This document shows, piece by piece, positions 6,541 to 57,396 of a stretch of DNA of 64,000 nt; position 1 is the first letter of the stretch, and each line of letters starts with the position of its first letter. Location: assembly GCA_001794635.1 (NCBI GenBank), contig MGKE01000014.1, forward strand, positions 112,984 through 176,983, written 5' to 3'. The notes beneath the pieces were generated by a model. It saw only the letters and a program-made list of their open reading frames with translations, made no database searches and was not told where the DNA came from. Origin of the DNA: Candidatus Yanofskybacteria bacterium RIFCSPLOWO2_01_FULL_39_28 (lineage in GTDB: Bacteria; Patescibacteriota; Minisyncoccia; 2-02-FULL-40-12; GWA2-44-9). The position numbers and the translations under genes are program-made.

Positions 6541-6548
6541 AAATAAAA

Positions 6549-6639
6549 TACTACTAATTACAAATCTATCTAATGTACGAATCTACAAATAAGATATTGG
6601 TAGATTAGTATATTCGTAAAAAATTCGTAATTAGTAGTA
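6549..6639. repeat. TACGAAT/TACAAAT hairpin repeat, copy H1
   Basis: tactactaattacaaat...tacgaatctacaaata / tattggtagattagta...attcgtaattagtagta form an imperfect ~40-bp inverted repeat. It lies between ORF 6642-6992 and the gyrA start. Confidence 0.85.
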
Positions 6640-7736: not shown

Positions 7737-7847
7737 ATCGGCAGAGTAAGCATTTTTTCGGGCACGGCGTAAATTCTTGCTAGAATTTCGCCTTTTACTC
7801 AGCTCGTCAGCTTCCGTAAATCCCTTAAAAATACTTACTCTGCCGAT
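7737..7847 (+). repeat. three-way-junction intergenic element, copy A
   Basis: The outer stem atcggcagagtaagcatttttt / aaaaatacttactctgccgat encloses the core ttcgggcac-ggcgtaaattcttgctagaatttcgcc-ttttactc-agctcgtcagct-tccgtaaatccct. Confidence 0.85.
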
Positions 7848-7880: not shown

Positions 7881-7978
7881 ACCTTGGCCTTATTTGGGGA
7901 TTTGCGCAGGCTGGCTGAGCCGAGCAAAAGACAAAAAGTCAGCAGACTTTTATGGCGTGCCCCAAATAAGGATAAGGT
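7881..7978 (-). repeat. three-way-junction intergenic element, copy B (diverged); a further fragment lies at 7989-8010
   Basis: The outer stem accttggccttatttgggg / ccccaaataaggataaggt encloses gggatttgcgca-ggctggctgagcc-gagcaaaagac-aaaaagtcagcagactttt-atggcgtgcccc. The architecture matches the other copies, but the stem sequences differ. Confidence 0.7.
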
Positions 7979-19415: not shown

Positions 19416-19513
19416 CAGCTTCGCCCGTTCAGGGCACGATGTAAATTTTTGCTAAAATTTCATCTTTTACTCGGCCCAGTCGGCCTCCGTAAATCCCTTC
19501 ACGGGCTGGAAGC
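19416..19513 (+). repeat. three-way-junction intergenic element, copy C
   Basis: cagcttcgcccgt...agggcac-gatgtaaatttttgctaaaatttcatc-ttttactc-ggcccagtcggcc-tccgtaaatccct...acgggctggaagc. Starts 6 nt after the ftsH stop. Confidence 0.85.
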
Positions 19514-19582: not shown

Positions 19583-19656
19583 GGGTGTGTAGCTCAGCTG
19601 GTTAGAGCATTTCACTTATAATGAAAAGGTCCCTGGTTCAAATCCAGGCACACCCA
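19583..19656 (+). tRNA. tRNA-Ile(UAU)
   Basis: Hand-folded cloverleaf with acceptor gggtgtg/cacaccc, anticodon stem tttca/tgaaa and loop cuUAUaa. No encoded CCA. Confidence 0.85.
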
Positions 19657-19660
19657 CATT

Positions 19661-20190: not shown

Positions 20191-20906
20191 AACCAAATCT
20201 TACTACTATCTACGAAGACTCAAATATTATCGTTATCAACAAACCGGCAGGATTGATTACTCATCAGAAAAACATTGACGACAAACAGCCAAGCGTTGTT
20301 GACTGGGTTATTCAAAATTATACCGAGCTGAAAGATATCGGCGAGCCTTTTATTGCTTCAGGTGCTGAAGTCACGCGAGCCGGCATTGTTCATCGCTTAG
20401 ACAAAGATACTTCCGGTCTAATGATAATCGCCAAAAATAATGAGACTTTTTTTTATTTCAAACACCTATTTCAAACACGAAAAATTAAGAAACATTATCT
20501 TGCTCTCGTTCACGGTCAACCTAAAAATATAACGGGTATAATTTCCTCCCCTCTTGGTCGTATTGGCATGAAAAGAACGACCAAAATAATTGGTAAAAAA
20601 ATGATAGATCAAAAAGAGGCCGAGACTGAATACAAAACAATTAAAAACTATGGGCACTTCGCCCTATTGGAACTGACTCCCAAAACAGGACGAACCCACC
20701 AGCTCCGAGTCCACCTTAACTCAATCGGTCACCCCATTGCCGGAGACCCAGTTTACGGATTCAAAAAACTGCCTCCACCGCCCGGACTTAATCGTCTTTT
20801 CCTTCATGCCTATAAACTAGAGTTTATTACTCCTGACGGCAGAGCTCTAACCCTTGAGACAGACCTGCCGGAGGATTTACAAAAAGTCATAAATAATATA
20901 GAATAG
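20187..20906 (+). CDS. RluA-family pseudouridine synthase
   Basis: 239 aa. HRLDKDTSGLMI catalytic motif and the later GRTHQLRVH. Confidence 0.85.
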   Translation: MKPNLTTIYEDSNIIVINKPAGLITHQKNIDDKQPSVVDWVIQNYTELKDIGEPFIASGAEVTRAGIVHRLDKDTSGLMIIAKNNETFFYFKHLFQTRKIKKHYLALVHGQPKNITGIISSPLGRIGMKRTTKIIGKKMIDQKEAETEYKTIKNYGHFALLELTPKTGRTHQLRVHLNSIGHPIAGDPVYGFKKLPPPPGLNRLFLHAYKLEFITPDGRALTLETDLPEDLQKVINNIE

Positions 20907-20912
20907 AGTGTC

Positions 20913-21050
20913 ATGAATCCCCACACTCAGAAAGCATATTTTCTGAAGTGGCGGGGTATAAAACAAGTAACACAGCGAGTATACGGCACGTTGTAAGTGG
21001 GACACAAGATCCCAAAACATGAAGCCAAATGCTTTCTGAATGTGGGGATG
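20913..21050 (+). promoter_or_regulatory. CCCCACACTCA hairpin element on the rplS start codon (copy 1)
   Basis: ATGAATccccacactcagaaagcat (20913-20937) pairs with atgctttctgaatggggg... precisely atgctttctgaatgtggggATGAAT (21029-21053). An upstream mini-ORF MNPHTQKAYFLKWRGIKQV starts at the first ATG. Confidence 0.7.
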
Positions 21051-21410
21051 AATAAACTAGACCTATTCAATTCAAAACACGCCATAGAAAGCAAGCTAAA
21101 AGACCTGCGAGTTGGTTGGTCCGTTAAGATTCACCAAAAGATTAAAGAAGGAGAGAAGACCAGAACCCAAGCTTTTGAAGGCATAATAATCAGCAAAAAA
21201 CACGGCAATGAAGCCGGTGGAACAATAACTGTCAGGAAAGTATTCGGTGGTTTTGGTGTTGAGAAAACCTTTCCGATTTATTTGCCTTCAATAGAAAAAG
21301 TTCAAATCCTCAAAAAATCAAAAGTTCGCCGAGCTAAACTCTATTATCTCCGCGATAAAACCTCTAGAGAAATCCGGAAAAAGATGAAACAGACAGTTAT
21401 TACTTCTTAG
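21048..21410 (+). CDS. rplS: 50S ribosomal protein L19
   Basis: Start set at ATG 21048 (MNKLDLFN). RTQAFEGIIISKKHGNEAGGTITVRK...VRRAKLYYLR matches L19. Confidence 0.92.
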   Translation: MNKLDLFNSKHAIESKLKDLRVGWSVKIHQKIKEGEKTRTQAFEGIIISKKHGNEAGGTITVRKVFGGFGVEKTFPIYLPSIEKVQILKKSKVRRAKLYYLRDKTSREIRKKMKQTVITS

Positions 21411-22099: not shown

Positions 22100-22104
22100 T
22101 TTTC

Positions 22105-22402
22105 TGGTGCCGCGGGAGGGAGTTGAACCCCCGACGCCAGCCTCTTCCAAAGCTGAATTGGACTATATCATCACCCCCTTAGAATTTATATAAAGAGGGG
22201 CTGGGCGCTTATATAGGATTATCGTTGGGACTCACCTATTAGTCTCTACACCTGCCGGAAAATCAAAGCCCCTTCCGGATCGGCTCGGGATTGTTTCTGT
22301 TAAAGAAGTTTCCCCCGAATTCACCCAGTTTTTCTCAGAACTCATTACTAAGTTCGGCCCCAAAGAATTTAGGGCTGCGCTCTACCGCTGAGCTACCGCG
22401 GC
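22105..22402 (-). tRNA. tRNA-Phe(GAA) interrupted by a group I intron
   Basis: 5' exon gccgcggtagctcagcggtagagcgcagccct (22402-22371). 3' exon gaagaggctggcgtcgggggttcaactccctcccgcggcacca (22147-22105). Joined, they give the anticodon loop cuGAAga with A73. Confidence 0.8.
22148..22370 (-). ncRNA. group I intron (IC3-like, tRNA-type), ~223 nt, no internal ORF
   Basis: P1 pairs gcccu with ggggc, with the U.G pair at the 5' splice site. ucuuu next to the guide pairs with the 3' exon gaaga (P10). The terminal residue is G. ggtgaattcgggggaaac and aggtgtagagacta match my memory of the Azoarcus tRNA-Ile intron core (GGUGUAGAGACUA). Confidence 0.75.
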
Positions 22403-26098: not shown

Positions 26099-27271
26099 TT
26101 ATTTCTTATATCTTTGTTTTAAATTTGCCATTATTTTAGGTAAAACTTCCAATACATAATCTATGTTTTTTTTGGTTGTTTGTCGGCCCAGACTAAACCT
26201 CAAAACCCCGCTTAAATATTCGTTCTTAACACCAATAGCTTTAAGAACATGAGATGGCTCAACTAAATGAGCAGTACAAGCCGAACCGGCGCTAGCATAT
26301 ACGCCGTACTTATCTAATTCTAAAAGTATATTTTCACTGTCCAAACCTGGAACTGAAATGTTTATATTATTAGCTAGCCTCGCACCACCCCTAGGTCCGT
26401 TTATTTTAACAGGTAAAATTTGAGTAACTTTATCTAAAAAATAATCTCTCAACTTCATGACTTTTAACCCCTCGTTTTTATCTATTAAAAATACTGCCTT
26501 AGCCAAACCGGCTACAGCTGGCAAGTTCTCCGTTCCAGCCCTTAAGCCATATTCTTGGTCTCCGCCGTGGATCAAAGGGTTAAGCTTAACCACCCTTTTT
26601 TTACATAAGACACCGACACCTTTTGGTCCATAAATTTTGGCGCCATTAAAAGTCATCAAATCAACGCCCAAATTGTTTACATTCATATCCAAATAACCAG
26701 CGGCCTGACAAGCATCAATGTGAAAAATTGGTTGTAGGTTGTAGGTGGTAGGTGGTAGGTTTTTTTTGAAGTCATTAATTATTTTAGAAATCTTAACAAT
26801 TGGTTGGATTGTGCCTATTTCATTATTAGCATAAATAATGGATACCAAAACAACTCTTGGATTCAGCTTCTGTTTAAGATCCTCCAAATCAACTAGACCA
26901 CCATGATTGACCTTAAGGTAGGTAATCTTCCAACCCAAATTTTCTAATTTTTTAAGAGGTCCTAGAACTGATGGGTGCTCAATAGGTGTTGAGATTATTT
27001 CTCCTTTTTTTGAACTCAAGCTAGCCAAACCAAAGATGGCTAAATTATTAGCTTCCGAGCCCGATGAGGTAAATATAGCTTCCTCCGTCCTTACTCCAAT
27101 AAACCGAGCGATGGTTAATCGGCACTCTTCTAATTTATTCCTTGCTTCCCTACCGGCGTTATTAAAAGACGATGGGTTGCCGTAAAGCTTAGATGTTTCA
27201 ACCATTTCTTTTAAAACTTCTGGGTCAATTGGCGTAGAGGCAGAATTATCTAAATACACCCCCACACTCAT
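26099..27271 (-). CDS. cysteine desulfurase (NifS/IscS family)
   Basis: MSVGVYLDNSASTP is the canonical N-terminus, so I prefer ATG 27271 over the tracked 27355. FHIDACQAAG and SAGSACT motifs are present. Confidence 0.88.
   Translation of the reverse strand: MSVGVYLDNSASTPIDPEVLKEMVETSKLYGNPSSFNNAGREARNKLEECRLTIARFIGVRTEEAIFTSSGSEANNLAIFGLASLSSKKGEIISTPIEHPSVLGPLKKLENLGWKITYLKVNHGGLVDLEDLKQKLNPRVVLVSIIYANNEIGTIQPIVKISKIINDFKKNLPPTTYNLQPIFHIDACQAAGYLDMNVNNLGVDLMTFNGAKIYGPKGVGVLCKKRVVKLNPLIHGGDQEYGLRAGTENLPAVAGLAKAVFLIDKNEGLKVMKLRDYFLDKVTQILPVKINGPRGGARLANNINISVPGLDSENILLELDKYGVYASAGSACTAHLVEPSHVLKAIGVKNEYLSGVLRFSLGRQTTKKNIDYVLEVLPKIMANLKQRYKK
26731..26760. repeat. heptanucleotide array GTTGTAG x2 + GTGGTAG x2 inside the cysteine desulfurase CDS
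   Basis: gttgtag gttgtag gtggtag gtggtag gt. Encodes LPPTTYNLQP just upstream of the conserved FHIDACQ segment. Confidence 0.85.
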
Positions 27272-27327
27272 TTTAGATTTTTTAAACTTTAAACCTTTTG
27301 GTTTATATCCAAAATGAGTGTGGGGGT
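27258..27327 (-). promoter_or_regulatory. CCCCACACTCA hairpin element on the cysteine desulfurase start codon (copy 2, short form)
   Basis: The minus strand reads acccccacactcatttt-36 nt-aaaATGagtgtgggggt. The start codon lies inside the 3' arm. Confidence 0.7.
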
Positions 27328-27581
27328 AAATTGTCTTTTTTAATACTCTTGACATTTGTATTTAACTATGATATCATATAAATATAGTGTTACTCCTGAT
27401 TTCGTAGGTTCGCGTTTACAAACCGAGCACTCAATTTATTGAGTGCTCGGCCAACCTTTTCCTTATTATACAAGGAATTTCAGTAACCGCAACCCTCACG
27501 GGTTAATTGCCTATCGGATCGGGGGTTTCGCCCGCCTTGACTGAACTATTAGTTTGGTCGGGTAAAATCAGACAGTAAAAC

Positions 27582-33173: not shown

Positions 33174-33286
33174 AAGCCAGAGAGCGGTTATTCTTCGGGC
33201 ACGACGTAAATTTTTGCTAAAATTTCGTCTTTTACTCGCACCGGACCGTGCTCCGTAAATCCCTCAGAATAACCGCTCTCTGGCTT
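33174..33286 (+). repeat. three-way-junction intergenic element, copy D
   Basis: The 21-bp outer stem aagccagagagcggttattct / agaataaccgctctctggctt encloses the conserved core. Starts 2 nt after the ruvB stop. Confidence 0.9.
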
Positions 33287-33801: not shown

Positions 33802-33907
33802 CAAGAAGTAGGGTCTTTTGAGGGATTTACGGAGCGCGACTGGCGCGAGTAAAAGACGAAATTTCAGTAGAAATTTACGTCGTGCCCGAAAAAGACTTAC
33901 TTCTTGT
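33801..33907 (-). repeat. three-way-junction intergenic element, copy E (inverted relative to D)
   Basis: The outer stem acaagaagtagggtctttt / aaaagacttacttcttgt begins at the last base of the yebC stop codon. Confidence 0.9.
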
Positions 33908-35876: not shown

Positions 35877-35992
35877 TTAGTAGCTGGGGTGGGTGTCTTA
35901 AGGGATTTACGGACCGCGACCGGCGGGAGTAAAAGACAAAATTCTAGCAAGAATTTATGTCGTGCCCGAAAAACACCCACCCCAGCTACTAA
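35877..35992 (-). repeat. three-way-junction intergenic element, copy F
   Basis: The outer stem ttagtagctggggtgggtgt / acacccaccccagctactaa encloses the core. It lies between the divergent tyrS and PBP genes. Confidence 0.9.
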
Positions 35993-41160: not shown

Positions 41161-41287
41161 GGGTTTAATTATAACCAACGTAATAAAAATAACATAAGCA
41201 CTGAAAGTTTATATGATGTTTATAACAAGTGGATAAATGTTTACAATATTGACTATGGCATAAAACATGTATATACTACAAATTAAT

Positions 41288-41426
41288 ATGAATCCCCACA
41301 CTCAGTTAGGATTTGCGACCTAGTGTTTTATGGGTTTGTGGGAAAAACATGTGTATAAATTTAATTTTGGTTAGAATATTATTCCAAAATCGCAATGGAA
41401 ACATATCCTAACTGAGTGTGGGGATG
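41288..41426 (+). promoter_or_regulatory. CCCCACACTCA hairpin element on the rpmH start codon (copy 3), directly after a TTGACT-17-TATACT promoter
   Basis: ATGAATccccacactcagttaggat (41288-41312) pairs with atcctaactgagtgtggggATGAAG (41405-41429). Mini-ORF MNPHTQLGFAT. The promoter is at about 41250-41278. Confidence 0.7.
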
Positions 41427-41561
41427 AAGATTACCTTATATCGTCCAAAAAAGAAGAAAAGAAAAAGAAAACACGGCTTTTTTAAACGATCACAATCCAG
41501 ATATGGCAGAAGAGTTTTAACGCGCCGAAGAAGAAAAGGGAGACGTAAACTAACAGTTTAG
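41424..41561 (+). CDS. rpmH: 50S ribosomal protein L34
   Basis: My translation is [45 protein letters not shown] (45 aa). It is below the ORF-track length cutoff. Confidence 0.9.
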
Positions 41562-41914: not shown

Positions 41915-42119
41915 ATTTATTAAAGGCTACCAATATTTTTCCCACACCTTGCTTAGGCACAATGCCTTACCTTTATTTTTCCCCTCTGTTTGTAGATTTT
42001 ACCCAAGCTGTTCAGAGTATACCATTGAGATGATTGATAAGTGCGGCCTTTGGAAAGGCTTGCTTAAAGGTTTAAACAGAATATTGAAATGTAACCCCCT
42101 TACTACTAATTACAAATAG
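41895..42119 (+). CDS. yidD: membrane protein insertion efficiency factor YidD
   Basis: 74 aa. [11 protein letters not shown] motif. The last codons (TTNYK) are supplied by hairpin repeat H2. Confidence 0.88.
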
Positions 42120-42192
42120 ACCCAAATATACAAATTTACGAATTAAATTTATTTGTAGATTTGTACATTAGATAAAATTAGTAATTAGTAGA
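42101..42192. repeat. TACGAAT/TACAAAT hairpin repeat, copy H2
   Basis: tactactaattacaaat...tacaaatttacgaatt / atttgtagatttgtac...gtaattagtagat. It overlaps the yidD 3' end and ends 6 nt before the yidC ATG. Confidence 0.8.
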
Positions 42193-42197
42193 TAAAA

Positions 42198-47026: not shown

Positions 47027-47124
47027 AATTACTACGAATTACTAATTAAACAAATATACGAATCTACTAATAAAGAATCTGGATTTGTAGATTAGTACAT
47101 TTGAACGGTTTGTAATTAGTAGTT
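47027..47124. repeat. TACGAAT/TACAAAT hairpin repeat, copy H3
   Basis: aattactacgaattactaatt...tacgaatctactaat / atttgtagattagtac...tttgtaattagtagtt. Confidence 0.85.
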
Positions 47125-47448: not shown

Positions 47449-47450
47449 TA

Positions 47451-47556
47451 AATCTACGAATTACGAATCTAAACGAATGTACGAATCTACAAATCCAGAG
47501 TCTTTATTTTCTTTATTCGTAGATTTGTATATTTGAATAATTTGTAATTAGTAGTT
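47451..47556. repeat. TACGAAT/TACAAAT hairpin repeat, copy H4
   Basis: aaatctacgaattacgaatctaaacgaatgtacgaatctacaaat / attcgtagatttgtatatttgaataatttgtaattagtagtt. Confidence 0.85.
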
Positions 47557-48169
47557 AGGGTTTATTGCGAAGATCAATAATACTGGCAACTTTTTCCAAC
47601 TCCTCTTCTAATGGTCTGTTACCAGGTTTTTGGACAGGTGGGGGCGGTGTTTGAGGAGGCATTACAGGTCTTGGCTGGATTGGAGTTTGAGTGGGTTGCG
47701 GTGGAGGGTCGGTTTTCATTTGGCTTATCCTTTCTGGGAACTTTGCTCTCTGGACGGCTTTAACTGATTCAAGAGCCGGCGATAATAACTCCCCCACTAT
47801 CATTGAGGCGATATCTTTGGATTTACCTTCATCTAAATTTAATTTTTCCTGAATGGACTTGGTGAAATCGCCGATAAAAATATTTCCCAACAAAACCTCT
47901 CGAATTAAATTGGCGATTTCTTTTTTCTGTATCTCATCTAACCCGAACTTGGTTCCCAGTTTCTCTTCAATAAATTCTGCTGTGGAGAAATCAAAAATAA
48001 CTTTTCTTACGGGGACGGAAATGAAATTAAACTTGGTATTATAGTTTATAAAATCATTTTTATCTCTAAATTCAACTATCCCAGCTCTGTAAGGAGTAAA
48101 ATAATCTCCGCCAGTATAGTTAGTGTCTTCTAGGGTCAAATCTTGTGTTGGGTTGATGGCTTCATCCAT
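47555..48169 (-). CDS. hypothetical protein with Pro-rich C-terminal region (T4SS-like cluster)
   Basis: 204-aa ORF. DPPPQPTQTPIQPRPVMPPQTPPPPVQKP. Confidence 0.5.
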   Translation of the reverse strand: MDEAINPTQDLTLEDTNYTGGDYFTPYRAGIVEFRDKNDFINYNTKFNFISVPVRKVIFDFSTAEFIEEKLGTKFGLDEIQKKEIANLIREVLLGNIFIGDFTKSIQEKLNLDEGKSKDIASMIVGELLSPALESVKAVQRAKFPERISQMKTDPPPQPTQTPIQPRPVMPPQTPPPPVQKPGNRPLEEELEKVASIIDLRNKP

Positions 48170-51638: not shown

Positions 51639-52589
51639 TTAATCTTTGTAAAGAAGATCTAAAATTTGGTAAAAACTACTGTCTAAAACTAAGTTTTCCG
51701 AAGAAATTTTTGTTTGAACAGATTTGATTAATGATTTTGTTTCCAGACTTAAAGTACCAATTTCGTTTAACGCCACGATGGCTTTAAGGGCATCGGTTTG
51801 ATAATTTGCTATTTGGTGATAGGTCAAAGAAAGGCGGCCAAGAAGATTTAAAATGTTTTTATGGACATCAACCCAATTGGCCGGAACTTTTAAAGTTGTT
51901 GTTTTTTCCAAAGAAGATTTAAACTTTTCTGATTTGGCTGAGAAATAAGGAGTTTGTTGTTCTATAGTTGATCCAAGATTTGGTTGCTGGTCAAAACTTA
52001 GAAGATCGTCTTGAATTATCTGAGCCAAGCTGATTAAATATTCAATCTGATTTGTTTTGGAAGTTTCCACGGTAATTATGGTCGGTAAAGGAACTGAATC
52101 CTGTATTTTGTAAAAGTCGTCTATTATTGAGTAAGAAAGAGCGGCCAAGGCGTTATCTTTTGTGTTATCCGAAGCCTCACGTGTTAAATCTCCGGAACCG
52201 ATTGCTCCGGCGACGAGGGCTAGTGTCTTATCGGTTAAATTGAGCGAAGCTAAATCCGGCTCGGCAATTGGCGGAGGTGTATTGAAAGCGGTATCAAGCC
52301 GGTCGTCACCTGATGAAGAAACTCTCGGATCATGACCAGAGGCCACCTCTTCCCCATCAAGAAAACCATCACCATCAGTGTCGGGGTTTAAAAAATCAGT
52401 ATTCCAGTAGGATTCTTCAGAGTCAGTTAAACCATCTCCGTCGACGTCGTCTTTTAGTGGAGGTAATGATTTAGCCGATTCAAATAAGGAGGCCGAGCGG
52501 ACACCATGAAAAACATCAAAGAAAGAAAAAACTGAAAATATAGCCAAAACAGCCAATAGGGATATAAAAGTTTTAATATTGTTTGACAA
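51639..52589 (-). CDS. secreted protein with thrombospondin-type-3-like calcium-binding repeats
   Basis: 316 aa. DVDGDGLTDSEE and DTDGDGFLDGEE repeats after the signal/TM segment. Confidence 0.6.
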   Translation of the reverse strand: MSNNIKTFISLLAVLAIFSVFSFFDVFHGVRSASLFESAKSLPPLKDDVDGDGLTDSEESYWNTDFLNPDTDGDGFLDGEEVASGHDPRVSSSGDDRLDTAFNTPPPIAEPDLASLNLTDKTLALVAGAIGSGDLTREASDNTKDNALAALSYSIIDDFYKIQDSVPLPTIITVETSKTNQIEYLISLAQIIQDDLLSFDQQPNLGSTIEQQTPYFSAKSEKFKSSLEKTTTLKVPANWVDVHKNILNLLGRLSLTYHQIANYQTDALKAIVALNEIGTLSLETKSLIKSVQTKISSENLVLDSSFYQILDLLYKD

Positions 52590-52590
52590 A

Positions 52591-52693
52591 CAATTACTAC
52601 GAATTACTAATCAAACTAATTTACAAATCTACGAATAAATAATTTGTAGATACGTATATTGGTAAAATACGTAATTTGTAGTTGTATAATTCC
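52591..52693. repeat. TACGAAT/TACAAAT hairpin repeat, copy H5 (supplies the C-terminal codons and stop of lnt)
   Basis: caattactacgaattactaat...tttacaaatctacgaat / atttgtagatacgtat...acgtaatttgtagttg. The lnt tail ...ITYFTNIRIYKLFIRRFVN is a translation of the repeat. Confidence 0.75.
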
Positions 52694-54151: not shown

Positions 54152-54918
54152 TGTTCAAGCGATAAGTTCTCTGCCCTTATTATAGGATTAAGATTCAATT
54201 TTTCAAAGATTTCAACTATTTTTTCTTTGCGAGTTTTGAGTTGTTTAGCTAAATTACTGGCCAACTGTTTTCTTTTACCACCAAATCCAGCTTTAATTAA
54301 TCTGAATAAGTCTTCTGTTTCTTGTTTGGTCGCTTGTTGCTTGTCTCTTGTCGCTAACTTTATTATTGCCGAATCAACTTTTGGGATTGGACGGAAGTTG
54401 TTTTTGGAAACATAACTGATTATTTCTGGCTCAGTATAGTATTGCACCGAAAGGGCAAGCAGATTCGTATGAGGAGGTTTAGCCATTATTCTTTGAGCGA
54501 CTTCTTTTTGAATTGTAAGAACAATAAGTTGTGGTTGGGCCATCCGCCAGCTGGCGGACTCGAATATTGTTCTCAATAAGTTGGAAGTAATGTAGTAAGG
54601 AATATTGCCAATTACTTTGTAGCGACCAGCAACAAGAGACAAGCGACAAGGATCGAATTCTAATATATCAGCCTCAATTATTTTGACGTTGGCTTGGTTT
54701 TTGAACTTTTCATTTAGATAGTCAATGAGGCGGCGGTCTTTCTCAATTCCAATAACAGTCCCGGCTTTTTGGACAAGTTTTATGGTTAAATTACCAGTGC
54801 CAGGGCCAATCTCAACGACAATATCGTTACTGTTTAATTCAGCGGCAGAAATAATCTCGTCTAATATTCGTGGGTTAATTAGCCAATTCTGGCCAAGTGA
54901 TTTTTTGGGAGTAAACAT
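54118..54918 (-). CDS. rsmA: 16S rRNA (adenine1518/1519-N6)-dimethyltransferase
   Basis: 266 aa. KKSLGQNWLINPRILDEI and EIGPGTGNLT. Confidence 0.92.
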   Translation of the reverse strand: MFTPKKSLGQNWLINPRILDEIISAAELNSNDIVVEIGPGTGNLTIKLVQKAGTVIGIEKDRRLIDYLNEKFKNQANVKIIEADILEFDPCRLSLVAGRYKVIGNIPYYITSNLLRTIFESASWRMAQPQLIVLTIQKEVAQRIMAKPPHTNLLALSVQYYTEPEIISYVSKNNFRPIPKVDSAIIKLATRDKQQATKQETEDLFRLIKAGFGGKRKQLASNLAKQLKTRKEKIVEIFEKLNLNPIIRAENLSLEQWEMLNTYLLK

Positions 54919-55372
54919 ACTACGAATTACTAATTTTACGAATTTACAAATCTACGAATTAAGATTTAAAATTCTTTTGAATTTGATTCCATCAGAAGTA
55001 AAATTGGCTAGAATTCCCAATTTTAAATTTGATGACCTTAAGTAACTAAAGATTTGATCAATATTTCTTTTAGGAAATCTATCCCCTACTTTAATCTCCA
55101 AAACCACCTTGTTATCAATCAAAAAGTCTATAAAATAGTGACCCACTTTCTTTTCTTTATAATACAAGGGAATAAAAAGTTATTTTTGAAAGTTAATACT
55201 AGCATCAGACAGGGAGTTGTTTATAGCATTACAATAATACTTTTCTTTATGTCCTGAACCAAGGTTATTATATACGTCAAATAATATTCCGACCAACTTG
55301 TAACTTAATTCAGGGTAAACAAGTTCTTTATTTGTAGATTTGTACATTTGATAGATTTGTAATTAGTAGTAA
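54917..55372. mobile_element. hairpin-repeat element carrying a GxxExxY ORF in its loop (arms 54917-54960 and 55329-55372)
   Basis: The left arm atactacgaattactaattttacgaatttacaaatctacgaatt matches the reverse complement of the right arm (actactaattacaaatctatcaaatgtacaaatctacaaat) at most positions. The arms are the same family as H1-H5. Confidence 0.6.
54952..55347 (-). pseudogene. GxxExxY (PD-(D/E)XK superfamily) protein gene interrupted by an in-frame TAA
   Basis: My translation is MYKSTNKELVYPELSYKLVGILFDVYNNLGSGHKEKYYCNAINNSLSDASINFQK*LFIPLYYKEKKVGHYFIDFLIDNKVVLEIKV...GILANF. The stop is at 55182-55180. Confidence 0.7.
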
Positions 55373-57396
55373 ATTTTGTCGTCTGCGTCAAAATCGTCAA
55401 TCATTTGCCAATCGGCGCAAGCTACGGGTATTTCACCGATAAACCTGGAAGGTAAAGTTGCCGAAGATGAGCCGAAAATTCTGCGATATTTTGTATAAGT
55501 TAGGATAAGGTGGTCCTTTGCTCTGGTTATAGCAACATAACAAAGGCGGCGTTCTTCTTCTAGTTCGTGAGGATTATAAGTGGTTCGGCTATGAGGAAAC
55601 AGCCCTTCTTCCATACCGATAATAAATACAACAGGAAATTCTAACCCCTTTGAAGCGTGGATTGTCATCAGGGTTATTCTATCAGGATCATTTCTTAATT
55701 TGTCCGTGTGTTGCAGGAGAGCCACTTCTTCCAAAAATTTCTCCACCCCCTCTTTACCCGAAAGATCATCATATTTGGAAGCAACAGTTTGCAGTTCTTT
55801 TAAATTTTCCATTCTGTCTTCCAGGTTTTCATAGTCGCCTGTTTTTGAAAGACTGAACTCTCTTAGATAGTCTTCGTAATTTATCTTCTTAATTATGTAT
55901 TTTATTATTTCTCGGAGATTTTTCTTTTCTGATATCTCGCCAATATCGGTCAAAAGTTTATGAAAATCAGTTACGGCTGTGAGTTGTCGCGGCGGCAAGT
56001 TTTTTGATTCCAAAGAAACAGCCAAAGCAGCTACAATATTTTTTTCGCTATTATTTCTGACTTTTTCAATTATGCTTTTACCGATTCCCCGCGTTGGAAC
56101 ATTGTATATTCTCTCCAGGGCAAGTGAGTCTGTTGGATTAACAACTAACTTAAGATAGGCCAAGATGTCTTTTATCTCCTTTCTCTCATAGAATTTAAGA
56201 CCGCCGATAATTTGATAAGGGAAACCACTCATAATCAGAGCTTCTTCTATGGCTCGGGACTGTGCATGGGTCCGATAAAGAACGGCAAAATCTTTTGCGC
56301 CCAGACCGCTCTTCATCAAATCTTCCATCCTTGATATTACAAAACCAGCCTCGTGGCGTTCGTTAATAGTTTCGGCAACTAATATTTTTTCTCCGTGGTT
56401 ATTTTCAGTCCAGAGTGATTTCTGGATCTGGTTTTTGTTTTTTGAAATTATTTCCTGGGCGGCGGTGATAATGTTTTTGGTTGAACGATAATTTTGTTCA
56501 AGCATAACTACTTTTGCCTCCGGATAGTCTTTTTGGAAGTTGAGAATATTTCTGATATCAGCTCGACGGAACTGATAGATTGACTGGGCGTCATCGCCGA
56601 TACAGAACAAGTTTCTGTATTTTTGGGCCAGCAAACTTATTAAAACATACTGGTCATGACTAGTGTCTTGATATTCATCAACAAGGATATATTTCCACAT
56701 CTCCTGGTATTTAGTCAGTGTTTCGCTGTTTTGTTTGAATATTTTAACCGGCAAAACTATAAGATCGTCAAAATCAACGGCGTTTAAATCTTTTAGTTCC
56801 TGTTGGTACTTTTTGTAGATTTTAGCAAGGATTTCGGAATAGTAATCTTTGGGCTCATGGTTTTCTGGAAAAATAAGCTGGGTTTTTAACTCTGATATTT
56901 TGTACAAAATTATTTTAGGATTGAAGCTTTTCGCATCTATTTCTAAATCACCCATCACCCTTTTTAATAATCCCAACTGATCATCCTCATCAAAGACTGT
57001 GAAATTTCGGCGGTAACCAAGTTGAGGTGCTTCATTGCGTAATATTTTAAGGCCAATTGAATGAAAAGTTCCAATTTGCGGCGTAGTCATAAATCGTCCT
57101 GAGCTTGCTTGCTCTGAGCTTGTCGAAGATGCCGAAGGACTACCTAAAAGTTTTTCTACTCTTTCTCTCATCTCCCCCGATGCTTTATTTGTGAAAGTTA
57201 CGGCCAGAATATTCTCCGGCAGAATGCCTTGATAAATTAGGTAAGCAACTCGGTGGGTCAAACACCTTGTTTTACCTGAACCCGGGCCGGAAATAACCAA
57301 AACCGGTCCGTCAGTAATTTTGACAGCTTCAATTTGTTTTTCGTTTAAACCCTTGATTATTTCTTTCACATTAATTAAGGTATCAGAATCGTTCAT
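55363..57396 (-). CDS. pcrA: UvrD/PcrA-type ATP-dependent DNA helicase
   Basis: 677 aa. GPGSGKT, DEYQDTS, and the later helicase motifs. The last codons and stop (tactactaa) come from the hairpin repeat. Confidence 0.92.
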   Translation of the reverse strand: MNDSDTLINVKEIIKGLNEKQIEAVKITDGPVLVISGPGSGKTRCLTHRVAYLIYQGILPENILAVTFTNKASGEMRERVEKLLGSPSASSTSSEQASSGRFMTTPQIGTFHSIGLKILRNEAPQLGYRRNFTVFDEDDQLGLLKRVMGDLEIDAKSFNPKIILYKISELKTQLIFPENHEPKDYYSEILAKIYKKYQQELKDLNAVDFDDLIVLPVKIFKQNSETLTKYQEMWKYILVDEYQDTSHDQYVLISLLAQKYRNLFCIGDDAQSIYQFRRADIRNILNFQKDYPEAKVVMLEQNYRSTKNIITAAQEIISKNKNQIQKSLWTENNHGEKILVAETINERHEAGFVISRMEDLMKSGLGAKDFAVLYRTHAQSRAIEEALIMSGFPYQIIGGLKFYERKEIKDILAYLKLVVNPTDSLALERIYNVPTRGIGKSIIEKVRNNSEKNIVAALAVSLESKNLPPRQLTAVTDFHKLLTDIGEISEKKNLREIIKYIIKKINYEDYLREFSLSKTGDYENLEDRMENLKELQTVASKYDDLSGKEGVEKFLEEVALLQHTDKLRNDPDRITLMTIHASKGLEFPVVFIIGMEEGLFPHSRTTYNPHELEEERRLCYVAITRAKDHLILTYTKYRRIFGSSSATLPSRFIGEIPVACADWQMIDDFDADDKIYY

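Follow-up and report, generated by a model that had tools for sequence, protein, structure and literature searches.

The window analysed here comprises 64,000 nucleotides of contig MGKE01000014.1 (positions 112,984 to 176,983 of the forward strand) from Candidatus Yanofskybacteria bacterium RIFCSPLOWO2_01_FULL_39_28, a member of the Patescibacteria, also known as the candidate phyla radiation (CPR). It includes the genes of the ribosomal proteins L19 (rplS) and L34 (rpmH) and of a cysteine desulfurase (iscS). In front of both ribosomal protein genes, an initial annotation had recognised a hairpin that buries the start codon and that is accompanied by a duplicated ATGAAT and a short open reading frame (ORF) encoding MNPHTQ. 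Two readings had been offered for this arrangement, a translational-coupling or leaderless-initiation adaptor of ribosomal protein genes and an insertion resembling a MITE (miniature inverted-repeat transposable element), which would have duplicated ATGAA as its target site. In window coordinates, the features at the two genes are:

20876..20904, plus strand: promoter-like TTTACA-17-TAGAAT within the 3' end of rluA, candidate native rplS promoter with a leaderless-type layout (8 nt to the old ATG)
20913..20917, plus strand: old rplS start, consisting of A and the left TGAA duplication, 6 nt past the rluA stop, a spacing as found for the L19 start in relatives
20913..20996, plus strand: rplS mini-ORF of 27 codons and TAA, a by-product of the old ATGAA, the following T and the left arm
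20918..21048, plus strand: first element copy (131 nt), T-CCCCACACTCAGAAAGCAT ... ATGCTTTCTGAATGTGGGG-A, with its terminal A serving as the first base of the rebuilt rplS ATG
21049..21052, plus strand: right TGAA duplication at rplS, with the rebuilt start codon at 21048-21050
21048..21410, plus strand: rplS (L19, 120 aa; Pfam PF01245, E = 2.9e-34)
41249..41277, plus strand: promoter-like TTGACT-17-TATACT, 10 nt before the old rpmH ATG
41288..41292, plus strand: old rpmH start, consisting of A and the left TGAA duplication, which also opens an 11-codon mini-ORF (41288-41323)
41293..41424, plus strand: element copy 2, 132 nt, of the TTAGGAT inner-stem subfamily, with its terminal A serving as the first base of the rebuilt rpmH ATG
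41425..41428, plus strand: right TGAA duplication at rpmH
41424..41561, plus strand: rpmH (L34, 45 aa; Pfam PF00468, E = 3.5e-14)

The layout that had been described for the two genes is found at both of them. Upstream of rplS, ATGAA (20913-20917) is followed by T-CCCCACACTCAG-AAAGCAT from position 20918, and the returning strand ATGCTTT-CTGAATGTGGGG-A extends to 21048, where TGAA follows. At rpmH, the equivalent ATGAA (41288-41292) precedes T-CCCCACACTCAG-TTAGGAT ... ATCCTAA-CTGAGTGTGGGG-A (41293-41424), again with TGAA behind it. The 18 nucleotides noted as identical correspond to ATGAATCCCCACACTCAG in either copy, the inner 7 bp of the stems differ between the two genes with their complementarity kept and, with the AU located 5' of CCCC pairing to the AU of the genuine AUG, stems of 21 bp are formed at both genes, of which the one at rplS contains a single C-A mismatch. 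The calculated folding energies are -50 kcal/mol for rplS and -53.4 kcal/mol for rpmH (z = -4.8 and -5.9 compared to shuffled sequences), and the two-arm pattern is matched twice in the window as opposed to not once in 100 shuffles. In the rpmH copy, the terminal stem (P1) of 20 bp is followed by the one-sided bulge TGGAAACAT and a second stem (P2) composed of TTGCGA and TCGCAA. The promoter-like sequence reported for rpmH is present, and a similar one is located upstream of rplS. Conversely, the loops had been regarded as unrelated, which does not wholly hold since both align to one family, and a third copy of 68 nt on the minus strand (27259-27326) had been overlooked. No copies beyond these three were identified in a profile search of the window. 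The identical L19 protein was found on 24 contigs that were read (29 index blocks), and the 141-nt gap between rluA and rplS is the same in all ten L19 loci displayed, which implies that the element at rplS is no assembly artefact.

We consider it highly probable that the hairpins at rplS and rpmH and the one at 27259-27326 belong to one family of non-autonomous palindromic (foldback, MITE-like) mobile elements that is widespread in Patescibacteria. The unit of the family can be written as Y-CCCCACACTCA ... TGAGTGTGGGG-R and shares with MITEs its inverted ends, a target duplication of fixed length, a small non-coding multicopy nature and a polymorphism in its presence and absence. We searched sequence collections for two exact arms spaced 90-120 nt apart, a pattern that holds no flank information and under-samples short and diverged copies. 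In species-representative genomes, 19 loci match this pattern, 18 of which are from Patescibacteria, where they are distributed over several classes (including Paceibacterota, Yanofskybacteria, Sungbacteria, Azambacteria, Saccharibacteria and others). The remaining match is a GC-rich palindrome of Acidovorax, which we treat as a chance event. Another 103 matching stretches are contained in metagenomes, many of them in loci without taxonomic label, whereas viral contigs contain no copies of either the long or the short form. Allowing for one mismatch per arm, the collected loci hold 111 distinct copies, with three in the 64-kb window, at least four in each of two metagenome-assembled genomes and at least six in a third. 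Copies usually encompass 118-142 nt within a whole range of 26-226 nt, which includes short forms of 66 nt and minimal, arm-only copies of 26-27 nt that contain the two arms connected by a 3-4-nt loop (L049 4212-4237, L122 6558-6584, L070 3287-3312), one of which abuts an ORF with a GTG start.

The mobility of the element is manifested in the comparison with orthologous loci lacking it, which had been proposed as a check in the initial annotation. In two relatives (L133 and L134) whose L19 proteins are 80-88% identical to the one in the window, the rluA-rplS junction (...ctctctATGAATAAG) is empty: ATGAATAAG begins 6 nt after the rluA stop, and the window carries 135 extra nucleotides exactly at this position. 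The same 6-nt gap is apparent from the gene coordinates of two further relatives, and the sequence upstream of the empty site in L134 shows the same layout as in the window, with TTTACA...TACAAT and 8 nt preceding the ATG. For rpmH, no empty site was obtained, as the exact protein is without match on record. Elsewhere, copies that are 94-95% identical adjoin unrelated genes and are embedded in unrelated flanks. Moreover, a single start codon, belonging to a gene of 82 aa, holds two variants of the element in related strains (L052 4656-4779 compared to L057 1074-1198, and also L089, L051 and L030), which are 76-78% identical to each other and 90-95% identical to copies at unrelated genes, thus indicating either repeated insertion or the conversion of one copy by another.

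The anatomy of the insertion emerges from the census of the 111 copies. In the model that agrees with every informative copy, the nucleotide outside each arm forms a complementary pair that is part of the element (46 copies end in T:A, 37 in C:G), and the element is flanked by a direct repeat of 4 bp, rarely 5 bp, in 49 copies, compared to about 0.4 cases that we estimate to occur by chance. The repeated bases include TGAA, TGAG, TGGA, TGAT, TGTA, TTGA, TAAA, TTAA and CACA and, both flanks change together (as in ATGAG...ATGAG or TTGA...TTGA), which argues for true duplications of the target instead of sequence brought along by the element. Two other models, a 5-bp target site duplication combined with Y ('TSD5 + Y') and a 6-bp duplication, provide a poorer fit to copies outside start codons than 4 bp plus the terminal Y:R pair. 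In the T...A-ended subfamilies, nearly all copies have been inserted at A|TGAA within the opening codons of a gene. Upstream, the native ATGAA is retained, where it is still served by the native promoter or a leaderless 5' end, and the old start now reads into the left arm as ATG AAT CCC CAC ACT CAG, which encodes MNPHTQ, while the terminal A of the element together with the duplicated TGAA recreates ATGAA and thereby a start codon at the foot of the helix between both arms. The clearest case is found in copy L098_65, which reads GTGAAT[E]ATGAAT (with E referring to the element) and has kept the upstream G, which demonstrates the element to be the source of the A in the rebuilt start codon. 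The MITE-like reading is thus supported in a refined form, where the duplication is confined to the 4 bp TGAA, the last A originates from the element and relatives contain the empty site. The duplicated ATGAAT, the seemingly conserved mini-ORF and the buried start are thus the geometric outcome of a single insertion and not designed parts of a regulator of ribosomal protein genes. In two loci (L055 2074-2202 and L030 2249-2474), the copies are flanked by inverted fragments of a start codon (TTCAT[E]ATGAA), as expected after recombination between oppositely oriented copies.

The mini-ORF, which had been described as conserved, is present with the sequence MNPHTQKAYFLKWRGIKQVTQRVYGTL at rplS and MNPHTQLGFAT at rpmH, both followed by a stop. 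Its conservation, however, is restricted to the arm and its length varies between 6 and 27 codons. In four copies the upstream ATG is decayed or absent in front of intact genes, whose ORFs remain open for 334 to more than 749 codons: it is changed to ATA in L083_4654 (the same locus as L108) and to ATT in L128_2622, and it is absent in L055 and L030_2249. In light of this variable length, the conservation of only the arm and the loss of the ATG, the mini-ORF appears unlikely to be required for the expression of the downstream gene. A perfect RNA helix of 20-21 bp is a classical substrate of RNase III. It is our preferred guess, held with somewhat less than even confidence, that the 20-21-bp helix may be cut by this enzyme or otherwise opened, which would free the rebuilt AUG for use without any contribution of the mini-ORF. 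No fewer than 90% of CPR genomes keep the genes rnc, rnj and ychF (PMC12641178), and the hairpins of Correia elements in Neisseria mRNAs are cleaved by RNase III (PMC10969869). Alternatively, ribosomes translating the mini-ORF would melt the helix.

The distribution of copies is strongly biased towards gene starts. Among the copies with a TGAA or TGAG duplication, 33 of 36 coincide exactly with the beginning of an ORF that spans 40 codons or more, and a reconstruction of empty sites over all start-codon copies yields 32 different start-codon sites. This location is found in 40 of the 46 T:A-ended copies compared to 3 of the 37 C:G-ended ones. A preference for TGAA combined with the loss of disruptive insertions does not explain this distribution, judged by our rough estimate that start codons account for about 18% of the tolerable (non-coding or start-register) TGAA sites in the window. 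The search for arm pairs and the genes that they precede, which had been suggested previously, thus reveals a diverse set of targets. Pfam assignments of ten downstream proteins identify L19, L34 (in two distant lineages), a β-CASP/metallo-β-lactamase-fold (RNase J-like) protein, a penicillin-binding protein (PBP) transpeptidase, an HtrA-like protease, FtsH, a cupin and a CAP-domain protein. With the same element found at 32 unrelated gene starts, in RNA genes and in iscS, the proposed adaptor for the coupled or leaderless translation of ribosomal protein genes is not supported in the form in which it was stated. The same applies to a dedicated and vertically inherited cis-regulator of such genes, as for example a leader to which L19 or L34 binds for autoregulation, which would account for two of the three window copies preceding ribosomal protein genes and for the presence of an rpmH copy in both a Yanofskybacteria and a Saccharibacteria genome. 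However, neither site in the window matches an Rfam family at gathering or E-value thresholds, below which there are spurious microRNA-hairpin hits only, most copies precede non-ribosomal genes and the rplS site is empty in close relatives. The empty site and the range of genes refute this explanation, to which we attach next to no probability.

Outside of start codons, the element is found in a variety of places. Two copies reside inside RNase P RNA at different positions (L013 323-450 and L115 7480-7591), one after GAGGAAAGUCCGAACACAGC and the other directly 5' of GAGGAAAGUCC, at the place expected for P3. Two others are located within 23S rRNA genes that contain large insertions (intervening sequence; L042 525-659 and L076 2852-2986), and the former overlaps with a weak match to a group I intron just 5' of 23S position 2653. 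The copy in L012 is separated from the 3' end of a tRNA by a single nucleotide. C:G-ended copies have entered -35-like TTGAC hexamers, where the duplication regenerates TTGA (L015 1588-1729, L105 578-716 and L064 8279-8402), and in L015 the regenerated TTGAT is positioned 5' of a TATAAT. Further copies are contained in other intergenic DNA, where they are at times embedded in larger repeats.

At start codons, the element is inserted in only one orientation. Aligned in the direction of the gene, the start-codon copies share their internal features, with the orientation agreeing in all 27 informative pairs, and a profile constructed from six genome copies scores all 14 independent metagenome copies by 20-50 bits higher on the gene strand. 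For TTGA-type copies, the orientation relative to the duplication was uninformative. The consensus structure contains the 20-bp stem P1, a one-sided 9-nt bulge resembling AGAAATAT on the 3' strand, the 6-bp stem P2 and a variable tip. In 14 copies, P1 is paired to 98.6% and P2 to 81%, and compensatory changes are found in nine pairs, a value that is not reached in any of 500 shuffles. The inverted ends consist of 12 invariant base pairs followed by 7-8 variable but nevertheless complementary ones, and the pairing of the stem is kept by selection or homogenisation. An alternative 5' hairpin, formed by the left arm and an internal arm-like motif, was dismissed, as it is paired to 61%, shows no covariation and does not differ from shuffled sequences.

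Several observations weigh against the insertion of a MITE-like element as a complete account. A symmetric cut-and-paste transposase alone would not give a single orientation or a distribution restricted to starts, and orientation-specific integration or selection must consequently be added. About 780 kb of collected loci yielded no autonomous element bounded by these termini, as no pair of arms spaced by 200-4000 nt could enclose a gene and the single far pair is separated by 215 nt. A recognisable duplication is missing in 62 of the 111 copies. Several of these sit in larger repeats, where the true mobile unit may be a different one. The reconstructed targets share no motif beyond ATGAA, only an AT-rich upstream region. 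Finally, none of the window copies gave an outward promoter in a simple scan, and the conserved AGAAATAT bulge, inspected by eye, does not offer a usable -35 element.

The requirement for orientation specificity could be accommodated by an enzyme that inserts the folded hairpin in a site-specific manner, which might be a recombinase of the tyrosine or serine type or an HUH-type enzyme acting on single strands, in analogy to integron attC sites or the REP/RAYT system, with the flanking 4 bp constituting a crossover core instead of a duplication generated by the staggered cut of a DDE transposase. Such a process would be consistent with the absolute orientation and register relative to the asymmetric TGAA, an attC-like architecture (a stem whose base is conserved, a bulge on one side, another short stem and a variable apex in copies of 26-226 nt), the faithful propagation of TGAA among copies of the T:A subfamilies and the two different variants at the same start codon. 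Conversely, flanking repeats of many sequences would be hard to reconcile with a homology-dependent crossover, the termini do not match the R boxes of attC (RYYYAAC/GTTRRRY), an insertion of the IS200/IS605 type leaves no duplication whereas the flanks of this element co-vary, and no recombinase gene was noticed beside copies in the gene lists of the rplS and iscS loci. We view this route as rather doubtful.

Another question concerns the 5' ends of the targeted transcripts. A -10-like hexamer is located 6-11 nt 5' of the ATG in 22 of 36 targets including both window genes, which would place the old AUG at or near the 5' end. The same layout is found in 25% of all gene calls and in 40% of ATGAR starts in control sets, whose starts are crude calls, and the resulting enrichment (61% of targets compared to 40% of ATGAR-start controls) is marginal with p = 0.026. 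The targeting of leaderless genes is for this reason kept as a lead and not as a conclusion. On a general level, TANNNT hexamers peak 6-8 nt before the ATG of ordinary genes at 579 crude gene starts of the window and loci L011-L132, a sequence pattern that hints at leaderless or near-leaderless transcription as a common feature of these CPR organisms.

The strict start-codon position and the fixed orientation leave room for an effect that the inserted element may exert on expression. Accordingly, the element could be, or could have become, a functional 5' module, a mobile leader controlling translation or mRNA stability, either by the mini-ORF unzipping the helix in the sense of translational coupling or by a 5' hairpin that shields near-leaderless mRNAs from RNase J. 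The position at the start and the uniform orientation (33/36 and 14/14) exceed what simple tolerance would provide, the stem is kept by compensatory changes and the hexamers described above would supply the near-leaderless 5' ends. RNase J and YchF are both kept in CPR (PMC12641178), and there is precedent in Neisseria REP2, whose repeats deliver a promoter, a ribosome binding site (RBS) as well as an ATG to many genes (PMC3184786). On the other hand, mini-ORFs of 6-27 codons are not conserved past the arm, the upstream ATG is lost or missing in four copies with open downstream ORFs, the same element also occupies RNA genes, introns and DNA between genes, rplS of relatives is expressed in its absence and the leaderless enrichment is marginal, which makes a functional module appear unlikely to us. 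In a further reading, the element would actively home to gene starts, in one orientation and often at leaderless genes, to then act as a portable 5' hairpin leader that alters translation or mRNA stability. We propose this scenario tentatively, as less probable than not. In such homing, the target could equally be the transcription start, and the element would correspond, in bacteria, to elements that target start sites, as Ty3 does. In a still more extreme variant, which we regard as barely credible, ribosomes starting at the old AUG-AAU would skip the hairpin and resume at the rebuilt AUG-AAN.

The third window copy is found within a coding sequence. Its features are:

26099..27355, minus strand: cysteine desulfurase (IscS/NifS-like), with the true start ATG at 27355 assigned from the MSxxSKKxIYLDN of relatives
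27327..27330, minus strand: target duplication TTTA, upstream copy with respect to the gene strand, with the downstream copy at 27255-27258 now being TGTA
27259..27326, minus strand: element copy 3, short form of 68 nt, C-CCCCACACTCAT...ATGAGTGTGGGG-G, inserted in frame after iscS codon 10

Together with its 4-bp duplication, this copy amounts to 72 nt or 24 codons, which are in frame and devoid of stops. It is the only window copy that is read through, as those at rplS and rpmH contain stops in the loop. It folds with -42.4 kcal/mol (z = -7.0), and the change of TTTA to TGTA at 27255-27258 is synonymous (GTT>GTG). The N-terminus of the encoded protein thus reads MSRVLKKTIY-[PHTHFGYKPKGLKFKKSKMSVGVY]-LDN, whereas homologues begin with MSxxSKKxIYLDN. 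The assignment as a start-codon copy in front of a GTG start was ruled out by the N-termini of homologues. L135, an ortholog whose protein is 66% identical and which shares the synteny of NusA, trigger factor and IscS, carries a homologous insert at the same codon, where TTTA is kept on both sides and where the stem has undergone compensatory changes from CAT/ATG to CAC/GTG and from GGAT/ATCT to CGAT/ATCG. The insert is also present in a third iscS ortholog, whose contig has an empty rplS site. Since it is common to iscS orthologs, copy 3 must be older than the copy at rplS. In public records, iscS has been called with lengths of both 418 and 390 aa. The iscS copy behaves like a Rickettsia palindromic element (RPE), and RPEs also occur in RNA genes.

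With respect to known systems, RPEs resemble the CPR element as palindromes of about 100-150 nt in reduced genomes, which are found between genes and are read through in frame (PMC10969869). They differ in host phylum and apparently in sequence, and in-frame coding copies are exceptional in the family described here (one of the 111 copies in the census plus two orthologs), where the start codon dominates. A rebuilt ATG at the start codon is not a described property of RPEs. The Correia or NEMIS elements of Neisseria are likewise MITEs of 100-155 nt with long inverted ends that form hairpins in mRNA, which are cut by RNase III with consequences for the expression of neighbouring genes (PMC10969869, PMC3184786). 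They are characterized by a TA duplication, a binding site for integration host factor (IHF), promoters and no specificity for start codons, in contrast to the mostly TGAA-type 4-bp duplication, the lack of a detected promoter and the codon-exact position of the CPR element. Neisseria REP2 and Borrelia IR repeats (120-150 nt) are also located directly 5' of many unrelated genes and supply their ATG (PMC3184786). REP2, however, lacks terminal inverted repeats and contains its own promoter and RBS, whereas the CPR element has inverted ends of 12-21 bp, adds to the ATG no more than its A and keeps the native start upstream. The attC sites of integrons form imperfect hairpins in a comparable size range, in which the base of the stem is conserved, bases on one side are unpaired and the tip varies, and their insertion is orientation-specific as in the CPR element. 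The likeness is one in shape only, as the element, with its ends YCCCCACACTCA ... TGAGTGTGGGGR, is devoid of the R''/R' sequences RYYYAAC ... GTTRRRY, is found without integrase or cassette array and targets core housekeeping genes. Derivatives of IS200/IS605, which have no inverted ends, create no duplication and are located 3' of a fixed tetra- or pentanucleotide, do not correspond to an element with long inverted ends and co-varying flanks. Finally, in hairpins coupled to an upstream ORF (for example erm leaders and the long-distance pairing in MS2), a short upstream ORF similarly enters a helix that masks the start, whereas the mini-ORF of the CPR element is an unconserved by-product of insertion that is dispensable in several copies. 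In the literature, including a search for the arm sequence itself, we found no description of the CPR element. While small palindromic mobile elements are well known, its start-codon-exact, orientation-fixed and ATG-rebuilding behaviour is apparently undescribed.

The element is of practical relevance as gene callers disagree at its sites, where false 'conserved' mini-ORFs arise. In rplS, rpmH, ftsH and the PBP gene, a helix of -45 to -55 kcal/mol is placed directly on the start of essential genes. As these must be expressed, their hosts must either initiate at such sites or process them, and translation initiation in CPR becomes experimentally approachable through the genes bearing the element. 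The copies in RNase P RNA, the intervening sequence of 23S rRNA and iscS illustrate the tolerance of reduced genomes for hairpin insertions.

Besides the described family, the window contains other repeats and RNA features:

7754-7800, 7886-7971, 19426-19499, 33186-33244, 33811-33896 and 35891-35978, both orientations: palindromic repeats (about 50-86 nt) of a second family, unrelated to the first and with the core GGGCACGACGTAAATTTTTGCTAAAATTTCGTCTTTTACTC, located between genes
6541-6624, 42103-42193, 47027-47123, 47450-47563, 52588-52691, 54913-54983 and 55307-55377: third, AT-rich repeat family (…TACGAATTACTAAT…/…ATTTGTAGATTTGTA…), often as inverted pairs bracketing genes
1531-1584 and 2025-2078: two GTAGAAA heptamer arrays at a distance of about 470 nt, both with T-rich repeats behind them
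22138-22380, minus strand, with 22101-22135: Rfam match to a group I intron (65.4 bits) beside a sequence resembling the 3' half of a tRNA
19583-19657: tRNA-Ile with the anticodon TAT (ARAGORN)

Judged from these sequence matches, the region 22101-22380 probably constitutes an intron-interrupted tRNA gene that was not called by ARAGORN. A tRNA-Ile with a TAT anticodon is an uncommon bacterial way of reading AUA.

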